DNA of 41,856 nt from a virus: the UHGV virus genome UHGV-0391345; one strand, 5' to 3'. Position numbers and translations under genes: made by a program. The notes beneath the pieces are model-generated. The model was not told where the DNA came from, did not search any database, and worked only from the letters and a program-made list of their open reading frames with translations. Below, piece by piece: positions 21,029 to 25,627 of the stretch; within the stretch, counting starts at the first letter, position 1, and each line of letters opens with the position of its first letter.

Positions 21029-21154
21029 ATGTATACAACCTTAAAAAGGCTATATAACAATGGTAAAGGGCCATTAACTGTTGCTGAACTCAACCGGGCT
21101 GTGTCAATTGGATGGATTACAGAGCAGCAGAAAAACAGTATAATCGGAGGATGA
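21029..21154 (+). CDS. xkdX: XkdX-family small phage protein
   Basis: 41 aa MYTTLKRLYNNGKGPLTVAELNRAVSIGWITEQQKNSIIGG. Size and the pattern Y.NG...V......GWIT.EQ...I.G match XkdX. Not in the ORF track because it is under 60 aa. Confidence 0.5.
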   Translation: MYTTLKRLYNNGKGPLTVAELNRAVSIGWITEQQKNSIIGG

Positions 21155-21897
21155 TTGTGAGAGATATCACATTGTGCCATCCACGCTTGCAGCTTTTAGC
21201 GGGCCAGTTGGTGGATGAATGCAATAAACAGGGATTGAAAATTAAGATAGGCGAAACACTGCGGACCGTGGCAGAACAGGATGCCTTATACGCCCAGGGT
21301 CGAACTGCGCCAGGGAATATTGTCACTAATGCTCCTGGCAGTAGCTACAGCTCCTATCATCAGTGGGGAACGGCTTTTGATATATTCCGCAATGATGGAG
21401 CTGGGGCCTATAACGAAATTGGTGGCTTTTTTAACCGCGTGGGTACTATTGGTGTATCCATTGGTCTTGAGTGGGGAGGAAATTGGAAGTCTATTGTAGA
21501 CAAGCCGCATTTTCAGCTTCCAGACTGGGGGAGTAGTACATCTGGAATCAAGAAATTGTATCGTAACCCGGATGAATTTATGAAAACTTGGGTGACGGAG
21601 GAACGCACCGGTTGGATTAAAGATAATAACGGTTGGTGGTACCGCAGGCCAGATGGGACCTACCCGGCTAATAAGTGGTGTGTCATAAATCACCATTGGT
21701 ATCTGTTTAATAAGGACGGATATGCTTGCACCAGCTGGCACCGATGGAATGGTAGCGTATGTGACCCCGATGACGGTTCGGGAGATTGGTATTACTTTGA
21801 TCCTACACCAGACGGTCCATTGGAGGGGGCGTGCTGGCATAGTCAGGATAATGGCGCACAAGAAATCTGGTATATAGAGGATTCTAATTCAATATAA
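21151..21897 (+). CDS. endolysin: M15 (VanY/L-Ala-D-Glu peptidase-like) zinc peptidase with C-terminal choline-binding-type repeats
   Basis: SYHQWGTAFD fits SxHxxGxAxD, and DKPHFQ fits the third zinc ligand. C-terminal repeats are GWIKDNNGWWYRRPDG...HHWYLFNKDGYACTSW. The start overlaps the xkdX stop. Confidence 0.7.
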   Translation: MIVRDITLCHPRLQLLAGQLVDECNKQGLKIKIGETLRTVAEQDALYAQGRTAPGNIVTNAPGSSYSSYHQWGTAFDIFRNDGAGAYNEIGGFFNRVGTIGVSIGLEWGGNWKSIVDKPHFQLPDWGSSTSGIKKLYRNPDEFMKTWVTEERTGWIKDNNGWWYRRPDGTYPANKWCVINHHWYLFNKDGYACTSWHRWNGSVCDPDDGSGDWYYFDPTPDGPLEGACWHSQDNGAQEIWYIEDSNSI

Positions 21898-22183: not shown

Positions 22184-23272
22184 TCACATGATGAACTTTT
22201 CAAAGTGTTTATTGATTTTTTTATTTTGCCGGACAGATTCCAGGTCAATCACATTTCTGTATACAGTTTTCATGATATTGTCACTGGCCCATCCTCCCCG
22301 CTGCAATATATATTGGTCTGGTACACCTATGGCGTGCATAATGGATGCAGCATAATGCCGGAGGTCGTGAAAGCGGAAATGCGGTACATCAATCTTTTTA
22401 AGCACCCGCCCAAATCTATGTGTAATATAATCCGGGTTCATGTCAACTAATTTCCCTTTTTTACCCGATATCCGGTCAATTACAAATGCTGGCATTTCTA
22501 CATCCCGTGTACTATCATCCGTCTTTGGCTGTTTGATATACCATTGATTGTCTGGCCCCTTGACCATATTGTCTCTTACATGGATAATATGACCATCTAC
22601 GTTTTTATCAGTAAGGGCGCTTATCTCTCCTCGCCGGAGTGGGCCAAATGCAGCCAGTAATACGGCTATCTCTAAATCTGTACCTTTGATAGCGTCTAAC
22701 AGCTTTTTGATATCATTGTCATTGGGGCAGTATAAATCGGGGCGTTTTTTCTGCGGAAGCTTTACCTTTAAGGTTAAATCCGGCGCAAACATTTCCAAGG
22801 ATGCGGATAACAGGCCATAGGCATTTCTAACTGTCTTTGGAGACAGTTGTTTCCCTGCCAAATCACTTACCCATATCTGTACAGATGGATTAGATAGTTC
22901 TGAGAGCCGTTTACGCCCAAATAAGCCGTCAAAATATTGCTTTTGCATACCAATATACCCTCTAAGCGTAGAAGGGCTTAAAACGCCTTTTTTGACGCTC
23001 AAATAACGTTCGATAGCTTGGTTTACTGTTATATCTTCGTCCTCATCATCTTCCGATTCATTGTATCGCTCTATGGGCTTGTCTTTCATGTCTAATTTCC
23101 ATCTGGTAGCCATTTCTTTTGCTTCCTTGCGTGATGGGGCAACAAAGCTTTTGTAATGCCGCTTACCTTTATCATCTGTATACAGATACACTTGCACTCG
23201 GACATTTCCAGACGGAAGTACTCCTTTTTTTCTTTTCGGGGCTTTTATAGTCATTTTTCTTTCCTCCTTCAA
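22184..23272 (-). CDS. tyrosine integrase
   Basis: 362 aa. Catalytic region FHDLRHYAASIMHAIGVP...YRNV contains the H, R, H and Y boxes. N-terminal core-binding domain present. Confidence 0.85.
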   Translation of the reverse strand: MKEERKMTIKAPKRKKGVLPSGNVRVQVYLYTDDKGKRHYKSFVAPSRKEAKEMATRWKLDMKDKPIERYNESEDDEDEDITVNQAIERYLSVKKGVLSPSTLRGYIGMQKQYFDGLFGRKRLSELSNPSVQIWVSDLAGKQLSPKTVRNAYGLLSASLEMFAPDLTLKVKLPQKKRPDLYCPNDNDIKKLLDAIKGTDLEIAVLLAAFGPLRRGEISALTDKNVDGHIIHVRDNMVKGPDNQWYIKQPKTDDSTRDVEMPAFVIDRISGKKGKLVDMNPDYITHRFGRVLKKIDVPHFRFHDLRHYAASIMHAIGVPDQYILQRGGWASDNIMKTVYRNVIDLESVRQNKKINKHFEKFIM

Positions 23273-23425
23273 TTGATTTTCCTAAAAATAGGTATAAAAA
23301 ATACAGCTCCACAAAAATATTGCAAAGCCGCCCCGAAGATGGTACAATATAGGTGCAAATTATAATGCATATCTTCGGGTATGTAAGCCGGTTCCTGTTG
23401 GCGCAGGGGCCGGTTAATTTTGTTG

Positions 23426-23454
23426 TTGAAATTTTTCTATGTTTGATATATAAT
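23426..23454 (+). promoter_or_regulatory. consensus promoter TTGAAA-17-TATAAT driving a short + strand transcript convergent to the toxin-like peptide gene
   Basis: The -35 element is at 23426-23431 and the -10 at 23449-23454. Confidence 0.45.
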
Positions 23455-23460
23455 ATACTT

Positions 23461-23570
23461 AACAAGACAGCCAGTAAGGGAGGTTAAGGCTCCCCGCCCT
23501 GGCAAAAACATTTAGCTAAGAAATAGCCGCCTAATCTTTACCAGAGAGCAGGGCGGCTATTTCTTATGTG
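23461..23570 (+). ncRNA. candidate antisense small RNA (type I antitoxin-like), ends at a bidirectional terminator
   Basis: No ORF. Runs from the promoter to the perfect 11-bp stem AAATAGCCGCC...GGCGGCTATTT (23521-23563). The stem is followed by T-rich tracts on both strands and overlaps the 3' end of the minus-strand peptide gene. Confidence 0.25.
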
Positions 23571-23640
23571 TGTAAGTCAGGATTGCAACGATTAGTAATG
23601 CCACGGATGTAATCAACTGCAATTCCTCATATGTACTCAT
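23557..23640 (-). CDS. 27-aa hydrophobic peptide MSTYEELQLITSVALLIVAILTYTHKK (type I toxin / Fst-Hol-Tox-like)
   Basis: Strong RBS AGGAGGGGA. Polar N-terminus, single TM helix, C-terminal KK. The stop overlaps the bidirectional terminator stem. Confidence 0.4.
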   Translation of the reverse strand: MSTYEELQLITSVALLIVAILTYTHKK

Positions 23641-23749
23641 AAGCATCCCCTCCTATCAAGACTCAGGACGGGTGCCGCAGCCGCCCTACCAGCTGCCCGG
23701 GTAAGTATATTATATTATCAAGGTGGTGTCCCTGTTGGCACAGGGACCG

Positions 23750-24100
23750 TTATTTTAGAATTAACTTTACAAACTCAATAATGGTTCCGATTAAGCCAAA
23801 ACCATAAAGAAACCCGGAAATAATTCTTTTAAAATTGTCTGACAGATATTTTGTTTTATACTGTACTATTCCATCAATTACTAATGGAACACAAAGAAAA
23901 GGCAATACAAATATGTTCAAAGTTATAAATGGAGTGATTATAAATGCTGATAAATAACCTATAATCATTCCGGTACATCTGGCGCAAACCGGAAATTGAT
24001 ATCCTTTAAAGAAAAAACTTCTTTCTGGTATTTGATGGCATCCCCAATATTTTGAGAATAGTTCCATGGTTTTTATCCAGAGTTTATCCTTTTTATTCAT
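23750..24100 (-). CDS. DUF2085-family membrane protein
   Basis: CHQIPERSF...PVCARCTGM followed by TM helices matches the DUF2085 signature. Confidence 0.55.
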   Translation of the reverse strand: MNKKDKLWIKTMELFSKYWGCHQIPERSFFFKGYQFPVCARCTGMIIGYLSAFIITPFITLNIFVLPFLCVPLVIDGIVQYKTKYLSDNFKRIISGFLYGFGLIGTIIEFVKLILK

Positions 24101-24276
24101 TACATTTTAAATTTATATCCACATTTTTTGCAAACCCAATAGTGAGTTGTTGTAGTCTTTCCTGTTCCACATAAACCTAAAAGGCCACAAAAACATAATT
24201 TCCAGAAACTGGCACCTTTTCCTTGAACATCACTTATAACTTCCATTTCTTCGCTTCCACATTTGGGGCATTTCAT
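24100..24276 (-). CDS. 58-aa zinc-ribbon protein (CxxC...CxxC), translationally coupled to the DUF2085 gene
   Basis: MKCPKCGSEE...WVCKKCGYKF. Good RBS GGAGGGAAAA. TAATG stop/start overlap. Confidence 0.45.
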   Translation of the reverse strand: MKCPKCGSEEMEVISDVQGKGASFWKLCFCGLLGLCGTGKTTTTHYWVCKKCGYKFKM

Positions 24277-24383
24277 GATTTTCCCTCCACTTTTATATTA
24301 TTTTATTAAAACGCTTTTAGCGAATTAATCAGAATTATAATTCTTCCACAAAAACTTTGGTACTAATTTTAGAAATCTCAAAA

Positions 24384-25412
24384 TCATATTTTTTTTCGAT
24401 ATATTTCTACGTTTCCGTTTGGAGTATTTTTTCCTATTCTTTGCACAATCAGGTGAAGTCCGTTTAGCCTAATTTGAATCCAATAGTCTTGAATAGATAA
24501 ATTTGCTTTTCCTATATTCCCATCAGCAAGAAAATAAATGGAACCAAATACCTTATAAACGTATAAAGTAGAGCCATTATAAATATGTTTTTCTGGTTGT
24601 TCTCTAAAATGTAATATTGCTGGATATTTTGAAATTCTCCCAGTTTTCGTATAAGGAATACATTCAACATATGTATTTGCTATACTGTCTTTTTCCATAG
24701 GAATAGGATAAAAGAAATCTATATTTTCAGTACATATATATAATGATTCATCAAAATGTGTATAAGAGTACGATTCCTCTATAATAGAATTGATGTAATT
24801 AATAGCAGATAAAGCTATATACTGGTTATTTTTATTTAATATAAACCATGCTATTCCATTAGTGTGATTAAGTTCCATTACCCATTTCCATTCAAAGGGA
24901 ATTTCTGTGAACTGATACATATCAAAAATTTTAAAAGAGTTATGTAAATTCAAATATTCTTGATTTTCTTGCTCTCTTTCTTTTAAAACAATAGCCCGTT
25001 GTTCTTCTTTTGCTTTTTCTTCTGATGTTGTAAAATGTATTCCAGCATCTCTGTATTCTTCTTCCTTTTCTACAGCAGCATTATAAATAGCTTTATTATT
25101 AACGTACGCTTCCCTAGCATGTTTTCTCAAAATGGAATCCATACCGTACTCAACCCCATTAATTTCTATAATATTACGAAAAACGGGCAATTTATAGATA
25201 TCTTCAGGGTTATCAAGGTCATATTTTTTTCCATTTATAGTATAATAGCGAGGTAATGAAGATATTTGTGAAAGAATAATAGTCCCATTATTTTGGGGAT
25301 AATTTTTACTACTGATATATGGGGTTATAGGGGGGATATTATGCATATCGCTTTTCACCTCCTTAGTATTTCTAAGTTTGAATTCGTTTAATAACGTATC
25401 AAAGACATTCAT
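24384..25412 (-). CDS. AT-rich 342-aa protein of unknown function cotranscribed with the cI-like repressor (superinfection-exclusion/defence candidate by context)
   Basis: ATGA overlap with the upstream 72-aa gene. GC content is markedly lower than that of its neighbours. No recognisable catalytic motif. Confidence 0.5.
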   Translation of the reverse strand: MNVFDTLLNEFKLRNTKEVKSDMHNIPPITPYISSKNYPQNNGTIILSQISSLPRYYTINGKKYDLDNPEDIYKLPVFRNIIEINGVEYGMDSILRKHAREAYVNNKAIYNAAVEKEEEYRDAGIHFTTSEEKAKEEQRAIVLKEREQENQEYLNLHNSFKIFDMYQFTEIPFEWKWVMELNHTNGIAWFILNKNNQYIALSAINYINSIIEESYSYTHFDESLYICTENIDFFYPIPMEKDSIANTYVECIPYTKTGRISKYPAILHFREQPEKHIYNGSTLYVYKVFGSIYFLADGNIGKANLSIQDYWIQIRLNGLHLIVQRIGKNTPNGNVEIYRKKI

Positions 25413-25627
25413 CCATGTGCCCTCGATTCAATATCTTGTACATCATCTTTTTCAAAATCATTTCCTTCTAAGTGCCTCATAACATGCCAGAATCTTTGTC
25501 TTTGAGATTCCGTGGTTGCATTTTTATCTAAAAATATAGTAACGGTTCCATCCTCATTAGGCGTTACGGCTTCATGTATTTTTCCAGATGGAAAGCTAAT
25601 CAATTGGACGTTGTAGTCAATCGACAT
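25409..25627 (-). CDS. 72-aa hypothetical protein, middle gene of the repressor operon
   Basis: Overlaps both neighbouring genes. Confidence 0.45.
   Translation of the reverse strand: MSIDYNVQLISFPSGKIHEAVTPNEDGTVTIFLDKNATTESQRQRFWHVMRHLEGNDFEKDDVQDIESRAHG

Follow-up and report, generated by a model that had tools for sequence, protein, structure and literature searches.

The lysogeny region of UHGV virus genome UHGV-0391345 contains a cassette of ~300 bp (about 23426-23722), located directly upstream of the integrase gene, that is proposed to be a self-contained type I toxin-antitoxin system, a reading to which a probability of about 0.8 is assigned from comparative sequence analysis. The window, meaning the whole stretch of 41,856 nucleotides (nt) that was analyzed, is a temperate phage or prophage as judged by its gene content. 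The type I reading is supported because a transmembrane (TM) peptide that is under selection, a convergent and covarying RNA without an open reading frame (ORF), an overlap of the two at their 3' ends, and a sequestered ribosome binding site (RBS) are conserved across ~195 cassettes. Furthermore, this reading agrees with published work on bsrG/SR4, EF3263, and type I toxin-antitoxin systems of prophages (PMC8309996, PMC2887945, PMC6563280, PMC8594479). The features of the cassette are as follows, in coordinates of the window.

23557..23640, minus strand: putative toxin ORF, 27 residues and stop, MSTYEELQLITSVALLIVAILTYTHKK
23647..23654, minus strand: Shine-Dalgarno (SD) sequence AGGAGGGG, with AGGAGG at 23649-23654, 8 nt upstream of the ATG
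23642..23676, minus strand: two-tier hairpin in the toxin 5' untranslated region (UTR) that sequesters the SD, with apical loop AGUCUUGA at 23656-23663
23657..23662, minus strand: loop hexamer GUCUUG (CAAGAC on the plus strand), complementary to the antisense 5' tail
23677..23702, minus strand: toxin mRNA 5' end, ACCCGGGCAGCUGGUAGGGCGGCUGC
23703..23722, minus strand: toxin promoter region, -10 TATAAT at 23714..23709, no conserved -35, predicted start ~23702
23457..23504, minus strand: probable toxin mRNA terminator (predicted), the complement of hairpin 1 followed by UGUCUUGUUAAGU
23426-23454, plus strand: antisense promoter TTGAAA-17-TATAAT, 11 of 12 consensus positions
About 23461 to 23570-23572, plus strand: predicted antitoxin small RNA (sRNA) of ~110 nt (105-112), expected to start at the TAACA motif, with no start codon followed by an ORF
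Parts of the sRNA, in order: single-stranded 5' tail (CAAGAC at 23463-23468); hairpin 1, 23470-23503; A-rich linker; terminator hairpin, 23517-23566; U-tract
23517-23531 / 23552-23566: central hairpin, perfect 15-nt inverted repeat

Relatives of the cassette were sought with degenerate DNA patterns, the first obtained by back-translation of the peptide and the second based on the RNA (AAATAGCCG N65-95 TGTTAAGTRTATTATA). The peptide pattern identified 22 viral contigs, all 22 of which contain an intact 27-residue ORF. The full cassette, with a TATAAT antisense -10 element and the same RNA start, is present at 21 of these loci (the 22nd ends with its contig), indicating that the arrangement is not a product of chance. 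Since the peptide search asked nothing of the RNA side, the occurrence of the antisense promoter and hairpins in 21/21 complete loci is an unbiased result. Beyond the ~300-bp block, which extends from the toxin -10 to the antisense -35, the flanks are wholly divergent in 21 of the 22 loci. The RNA-based pattern identified 78 viral loci and at least 120 species-representative genomes, for ~195 cassettes in all; five viral matches to this pattern were unrelated look-alikes and were left out.

The Putative Toxin Peptide

The 27-residue minus-strand ORF with a strong RBS that had been pointed out in a sequence-only reading of this DNA is present, with AGGAGG at the spacing given above. An in-frame ATG is also found at 23646. 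As this codon is separated from the SD by only 2 nt, and relatives either lack it or have it in another frame, the 27-residue peptide is taken to be the product. The peptide has a polar N-terminus, a single TM helix, and a C-terminal HKK.

The window peptide matches the Pfam family Hol_Tox (PF16935) with 22.1 bits (E=1.3e-4) against a gathering score of 23.3, and 32 of 39 cassette peptide variants match this family at E<=0.01 (best 2.6e-7). Hol_Tox comprises type I toxins that resemble TxpA and BsrE (PMC2887945; bioRxiv 10.1101/2024.02.02.578676). PHROG 9488, a 27-position family of unknown function, matches the peptide end to end (E=9.7e-6), and a 30-residue family member has been named 'putative holin-like toxin' by NCBI. 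Fst gives no Pfam match (Hol_Tox is the only match at E<=10), and the peptide contains no Pro or Gly and so lacks the APxxxGxxx motif found in the TM helix of Fst/Ldr toxins (PMC8309996). A shape like that of Fst or Hol-Tox toxins had been suggested for the peptide; the polar N-terminus, TM helix, KK ending, and an edge match to Hol_Tox are upheld, while the likeness to Fst is not. Judged by these family matches, the putative toxin probably belongs to the TxpA/BsrE/BsrG (Hol_Tox) group and not to Fst. The exact sequence of the window peptide is absent from the protein collection, and a PDB profile search with the peptide returned nothing meaningful.

The ORF is intact in 176 of 195 assessable cassettes, where it encodes 26-33 residues. 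The 120 distinct sequences share a constant architecture, beginning with MSTYEE., MYVTYSD., or MVTW.D., continuing in one hydrophobic helix, and finishing with a basic HKK, NKK, or KKK. Third codon positions vary the most (entropies of 0.88, 0.52, and 1.40 at positions 1-3 of codons 2-22), and the ratio of nonsynonymous to synonymous change (dN/dS) is ~0.28 (mean dN over mean dS, codons 1-22). The peptide ORF is clearly under purifying selection. These values bear on whether the ORF is translated at all, as the cassette could instead be a convergent pair of non-coding RNAs, or a terminator or insulator, in which the ORF merely results from constraints on the RNA. A hairpin arm does constrain the final five codons, and the peptide, which is very short, seldom appears among called genes and has no exact counterpart in the protein collection. 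However, the variable third positions, the low dN/dS, the constancy of architecture over so many distinct peptides, the fixed distance to the SD, and the matches to Hol_Tox and to the PHROG family render this explanation scarcely credible.

In the other 19 of the 195 cassettes (L040, L047, L055, L044, L048, L057, and others) the toxin ORF is disrupted while the antisense promoter and RNA are intact. Loss of the toxin ORF with retention of the antisense gene is the direction of decay expected of a toxin-antitoxin pair. This decay is also relevant to the proposal that the peptide is a regulated small membrane protein rather than an addiction or defense toxin, for example a lysis or timing factor of the holin kind or a modulator of a host process resembling ComI, whose level is tuned by the antisense RNA. 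Such a function would agree with the Pfam family name ('putative holin-like toxin') and with a weak match of the peptide to NCBIfam NF052249 ComI (15.7 bits, under the 55-bit cut-off); ComI has been placed in the BsrE-like family (bioRxiv 10.1101/2024.02.02.578676). In addition, some family members, YhzE-2 among them, were not toxic when overproduced (PMC2887945), and in the circular phage genome the endolysin gene is located less than 2 kb from the cassette. In contrast, the cassette travels autonomously beside integrases of two unrelated families and not beside lysis genes, and its layered silencing (SD hairpin, fold-back, and strong antisense promoter, described below) is a hallmark of a dangerous product. 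Together with the decay of the ORF, these observations make a non-toxin function unlikely, and the peptide is treated here as a putative toxin.

The Antisense RNA and the Central Hairpin

A consensus promoter had been proposed on the plus strand at 23426-23454, and it proves to be the best promoter-like site within 22900-24400. Among 155 distinct homologous antisense promoters, the -35 element, which lay outside the search pattern, is TTGACA in 105 and agrees with the consensus at a mean of 5.54/6 positions; the spacer is 17 nt in 105. The claim that this promoter drives a convergent, ORF-less RNA of ~110 nt that ends at the stem and overlaps the 3' end of the peptide gene is borne out at the level of prediction. 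The sRNA folds at -46.3 kcal/mol (z=-6.0 vs shuffled sequence), 96.2% of cells are paired when its structure is placed on 51 distinct sequences, and double-sided changes account for 100 cells, as compared to 37 in shuffles (0/500) and <=20 in slid controls. Results from both the promoter statistics and the covariation support the predicted RNA as a real transcript. The sRNA matches no Rfam family. Its end at ~23570 falls inside toxin codons 24-27, as in the BsrE-G-H/as-Bsr organization (T1TAdb, PMC8594479).

The perfect stem reported at the 3' end of the ORF is present, with arms of 15 bp (23517-23566) rather than the 11 bp originally described. Between the arms are 20 nt, within which another helix of 5 bp is found, and one arm contains the last four toxin codons (THKK) and the stop. 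The A and T tracts that had been said to flank the stem are also present, though mostly within the arms (AAGAAAT / ATTTCTT). By our own estimate, a perfect 15-bp hairpin with a loop of <=40 nt is expected by chance ~0.002 times per 42 kb. In the central hairpin, 62 cells are G·U in the plus sense (A·C in the toxin sense) as opposed to 9 of the opposite kind, an asymmetry suggesting that this hairpin has been selected mainly as the antisense terminator, acting on the plus-strand RNA. The stem had been proposed to terminate transcription in both directions; the antisense direction is supported by this asymmetry, whereas the toxin mRNA probably reads through, with partial termination of the toxin mRNA being possible. 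No weight was given to a YUNR U-turn motif in the terminator loop, which is uninformative because its chance occurrence is too likely.

The Toxin mRNA and Its Contacts

The block of conservation begins at the toxin promoter, upstream of which the flanks are unrelated. The -35 positions of the 31 toxin promoters captured agree with the consensus at a mean of 2.29/6, which is no better than chance. In the minimum-energy fold of the window leader the SD is paired, and per-sequence folds reveal the two-tier SD hairpin in 47/48 distinct homologous leaders, with stem sequences that differ between subtypes.

The 5' ends of the toxin mRNA and the antisense RNA are alike in the same sense (inverted repeat I1) and change together between cassettes. 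Consequently, a toxin mRNA that continues past the central hairpin to the second hairpin, as is probable, for a total of ~245 nt, would overlap the whole antisense RNA and would carry at its far 3' end a complement of its own 5' end. A 246-nt window transcript folds with this 5'-3' pairing (-94.3 kcal/mol, z=-3.5), as do 46/47 homologue folds, and the 5'/3' duplex has a mean energy of -35.6 kcal/mol for cognate ends, -29.5 kcal/mol for non-cognate ends, and -23.4 kcal/mol for shuffled sequences (0/5000 permutations). The pairing requires the segment at 23457..23504 and thus supports the long, ~245-nt toxin mRNA. In addition, the terminal hairpin of the Rfam BsrG model aligns at the second hairpin in the homologue L066. 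The wobble asymmetry of hairpin 1 is weak (21 vs 14), and a shorter toxin mRNA of ~186 nt, ending at the central hairpin, is possible. Two other accounts of these complementarities were set aside because 5'-3' self-pairing explains them better: I1 as an unexplained duplication, and a long RNAduplex prediction between the toxin UTR and the antisense 5' half as a duplex formed in trans.

A second site of complementarity is created by CAAGAC, a direct repeat on the plus strand (23463-23468 and 23657-23662), through which the antisense 5' tail could pair with the loop of the SD hairpin. Tail and loop covary between cassettes (CAAGAC/GUCUUG, AACAGG/CCUGUU, CAGAAC/GUUCUG, AAGGC/GCCUU, and CAGGA/UCCUG), and over 122 distinct combinations the longest Watson-Crick helix has a mean of 5.0 when tail and loop are cognate, as opposed to 4.0 when they are not (0/5000 permutations). 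These findings support a second, par-like contact, presumably functional, in which the antisense tail pairs with the SD-hairpin loop.

Distribution and Neighbors of the Cassette

The hosts among the at least 120 genomes listed are nearly all Lachnospiraceae, including Blautia, Frisingicoccus, Eisenbergiella, Enterocloster, Mediterraneibacter, Coprococcus, and others. Cultured strains that carry the cassette include Blautia celeris NSJ-34, Blautia schinkii DSM 10518, Frisingicoccus caecimuris DSM 28559, and Jingyaoa shaoxingensis NSJ-46. Among the matches listed, the sole cassette assigned outside Bacillota is on L149, a 2.9-kb contig binned as Prevotella sp., which is probably mis-binned. The ~195 cassettes have unrelated flanks, with varied cargo on the toxin side. 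For 146 cassettes, the ORF of >=150 residues that is nearest on the antisense side is a tyrosine integrase in 58 cases and a large serine recombinase in 15, such that the cassette is directly upstream of an integrase in 73/146; the integrase is always on the toxin strand and is typically ~170 nt away. A search for an 'empty site' with a right-flank 30-mer identified two contigs only, and the cassette is present in both. In blastn searches with the window cassette, only the neighboring int-upstream element (described below) was matched in phage records, and no plasmid record was found to carry a related cassette.

The location of the cassette could point to a function in which the plus-strand RNA mainly insulates or regulates the integrase, either by acting in trans as an sRNA or by transcriptional interference that counters read-through from the repressor operon, with the overlap with the peptide gene being secondary. 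The fixed orientation directly upstream of the integrase is in keeping with this function, as are the further terminator-like hairpins and face-to-face promoters found between the cassette and int in the window. However, half of the cassettes have no adjoining integrase, the conserved int-upstream element exists without the cassette, and the covariation of both the tail-loop contact and the fold-back ties the antisense RNA to the toxin mRNA. Control of the integrase as the main function of this RNA is consequently considered very improbable, and the RNA is discussed below as a candidate antitoxin.

Cassettes of different subtypes are found in tandem at three loci (L046, 13034-13488; L078, 11351-11803; L116, 3760-4213), and in the second copy of each the antisense tail mismatches its own SD-hairpin loop. 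Two other RNA elements were noted on contigs that carry cassettes. A Hammerhead type II ribozyme (L009, 2545-2609, plus strand; 44 bits, above the gathering score of 37) is located ~900 nt from the cassette of a viral contig, and a near-match to the abiF RNA motif is found at 939-978 of L053 (minus strand; 34.5 bits vs a gathering score of 37).

Genomic Context in the Window

The genes and elements that surround the cassette in the window are as follows.

21112-21897: endolysin
22184-23272, minus strand: tyrosine integrase
23300-23430: conserved int-upstream element of ~110 nt, directly upstream of the tyrosine integrase
23320-23348, plus strand: promoter of the int-upstream element, TTGCAA-17-(TG)TACAAT
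23332-23340 / 23371-23379: helix of the int-upstream element, CCGAAGAT / ATCTTCGG
23387..23359, minus strand: promoter-like site of the int-upstream element, in the opposite direction
23386 to 23415-23425, plus strand: hairpin of the int-upstream element, CCGGTTCCTGTTGGCGCAGGGGCCGG, with a T-run
Order beyond the integrase: cassette, DUF2085 membrane protein, Zn-ribbon peptide, two proteins of unknown function, cI-like helix-turn-helix repressor, divergent cro-like gene

The phage records closest to the window are Ruminococcus gnavus and Blautia phages, which lack the cassette and possess the ~110-nt element upstream of int. This element is present in 13 distinct copies, including those of R. 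gnavus phage phiRg507T2_3 and Blautia phage Montmirail (both without the cassette), has no Rfam match, and may regulate int. A second copy of its hairpin, 86% identical, is located at 23728-23749, right after the DUF2085 gene. The two direct hairpin copies flank the window cassette, which suggests that the cassette arrived by insertion or recombination at this hairpin. A mobile element resembling a miniature inverted-repeat transposable element was rejected, as the flanking hairpin is part of the int-upstream element and other cassettes are flanked differently. On the minus strand, a terminator-like hairpin followed by ATTTTTTATA (23303-23331) is found inside the presumed integrase 5' leader and could be an attenuator. 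Between the repressor and the cassette are genes for a 342-residue protein (24384-25412, minus strand), which has a weak PHROG 'Alt-like' match (E=4e-4) and no Pfam or PADLOC match, and for a 72-residue protein (25409-25627, minus strand), which matches PHROG 20886 (unknown function). These could be lysogenic-conversion or exclusion genes.

Proposed Mechanism and Significance

The type I reading suggests the following mechanism. First, a weak minus-strand promoter composed of a -10 element only would give rise to an mRNA for the 27-residue single-pass membrane peptide. This mRNA would be silent in two ways, with its RBS locked in the two-tier hairpin and its 5' end folded onto its 3' end. The near-consensus plus-strand promoter would supply an abundant RNA of ~110 nt, complementary to the 3' region of the toxin mRNA over at least ~50 nt, or over ~105 nt if the mRNA reaches the second hairpin. 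The resulting duplex would be subject to RNase III-type decay, by analogy with what has been shown for bsrG/SR4, while the antisense 5' tail, by pairing with the loop of the SD hairpin that lies 15 nt ahead of the start codon, would further block access of the ribosome, as in par and SprA1. Finally, loss of the unstable RNA, whether through prophage loss or through transcription shut-off, would permit synthesis of the peptide and damage to the membrane. Transcription, the RNA ends, toxicity, and the involvement of an RNase are predictions of this mechanism, and we infer that the system serves in prophage retention or abortive infection.

Several observations weigh against the type I reading. 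The window peptide is 1.2 bits under the gathering score of Pfam Hol_Tox, the matches of the cassettes to the BsrG RNA model are all under its 55-bit gathering score, and PADLOC found no match for the peptide or its neighbors. The toxin promoter is weak and putative, the 3' end of the toxin mRNA is ambiguous (central or second hairpin), and the tail-loop pairing is poor in some subtypes (AAGGAA tails and the second copy of tandem pairs). Furthermore, the search pattern used for the large set fixes AAATAGCCG and TGTTAAGTRTATTATA, the conservation of which is therefore by construction, and an unbiased view of the RNA side is provided only by the 22 peptide-found loci. In addition, the sequences are related by descent, so that the permutation counts are not true probabilities.

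It is tempting, though quite tentative, to view the cassette as joining three layers of RNA control, namely a hok-like fold-back, a bsrG/SR4-like 3' overlap, and a par-like contact, which tend to be reported from different families, and as possibly coupled to the integration module. The resulting addiction or abortive-infection device could then double as an insulator, shielding int from transcription that reads through from the repressor operon.

Experimental work on type I toxin-antitoxin systems has dealt mainly with Bacilli, Enterococcus, Staphylococcus, Clostridioides difficile, and enterobacteria, and literature searches identified no account of one in Lachnospiraceae or in phages of this family. 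The present cassettes form a compact family with sharp boundaries, found in at least 120 species-level gut Lachnospiraceae genomes and dozens of gut phage contigs, with an sRNA that is unannotated. If functional, the family would probably contribute to the retention of prophages or the exclusion of phages in abundant commensals of the human gut, and could be used as a small, ready-made part for counter-selection or RNA control in Clostridia that are difficult to manipulate genetically. From the natural covariation, explicit predictions follow for mutations in the fold-back, the SD hairpin, and the tail-loop contact.

Comparison with Known Systems

As judged by sequence and layout, the closest relatives of the cassette are bsrG/SR4 and bsrE/SR5, which are found in prophage regions of Bacillus subtilis, and TxpA/RatA. 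The Rfam BsrG model (RF01412) yields repeated, sub-threshold matches on the toxin strand (21.8 bits for the window and 21-28 bits for homologues) that are in the correct register, one of them across the full model. A tblastn search of phages with the peptide gave only matches of E>=2, which are not significant and served as a lead to SPbeta-like phages. One SPbeta-like locus scores 212 bits on the BsrG model and encodes a 27-residue peptide, MSTFQALMLMLAFGSFIIALLTYINKK, that is 44% identical to the window peptide without gaps. In both loci the stem of the antisense terminator starts at the toxin stop (AAAAAATAGACC... vs AAGAAATAGCCG...), and the U-tract of this terminator is templated by Lys codons. 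In Bacillus phage SPbetaL8 (L025, 582-695), the annotated 37-residue ORF is in the wrong frame, and a 27-residue BsrG-family peptide at 601-684 is unannotated.

Like bsrG/SR4 and bsrE/SR5, the cassette is prophage-borne and specifies a short single-TM peptide that extends from MST(Y/F)..L.L to KK. Also shared are a convergent antisense RNA whose overlap takes in the ORF end and the 3' part of the mRNA, base pairing of the 5' UTR to the 3' region, and partial sequestration of the SD. Unlike these systems, the cassette is more compact, with a predicted mRNA of ~245 nt and sRNA of ~110 nt as compared to 294 and 180 nt. Its central hairpin is symmetric and could terminate both strands, it adds a covarying match of the antisense tail to the SD-hairpin loop, and its hosts are Lachnospiraceae and not Bacilli. 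The TxpA/RatA family belongs to the same 'holin-like toxin' superfamily and includes 27-residue members (BH0344), as well as Enterococcus faecalis EF3263, whose toxin transcript is covered at its 3' end by an antisense RNA of ~110 nt (Fozo et al. 2010, PMC2887945). There is no significant direct sequence match to this family, and membership is through the shared Pfam model only.

The sequence-only reading had likened the arrangement to par and txpA/ratA. The convergent RNAs, the shared terminator, and the second complementarity justify this likeness, while a toxin of the Fst type does not form part of it. In par (Fst RNA I/RNA II, pAD1) and SprA1/SprA1AS, convergent transcripts likewise share a hairpin terminator, and a direct repeat provides a second complementarity between the antisense 5' end and the translation-initiation region of the toxin; the trans-acting 5' domain of SprA1AS resembles the tail contact of the cassette. 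These systems differ in having an unrelated toxin and pairing across the RBS, whereas the second site of the cassette is a 6-nt loop upstream of the SD. The par antisense RNA, moreover, does not overlap the ORF (PMC8594479). The predicted 5'-3' fold-back, which would close the full-length toxin mRNA, and the SD/anti-SD hairpins are features in common with hok/Sok and AapA1/IsoA1, but the toxins and hosts of these systems are unrelated, their antisense RNAs target the 5' region, and their activation by 3' trimming is documented.

The type I systems of C. difficile prophages (CD0956.2/RCd10 and others) are also borne by prophages of Clostridia and have convergent, overlapping genes, and they have been shown to stabilize prophages (PMC6563280). 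They share no sequence similarity with the cassette, and their toxins are 34-53 residues long with Lys-rich tails. Taken together, these comparisons place the cassette as a new subfamily of BsrG/TxpA-type type I systems, with a predicted and previously undescribed antitoxin sRNA.

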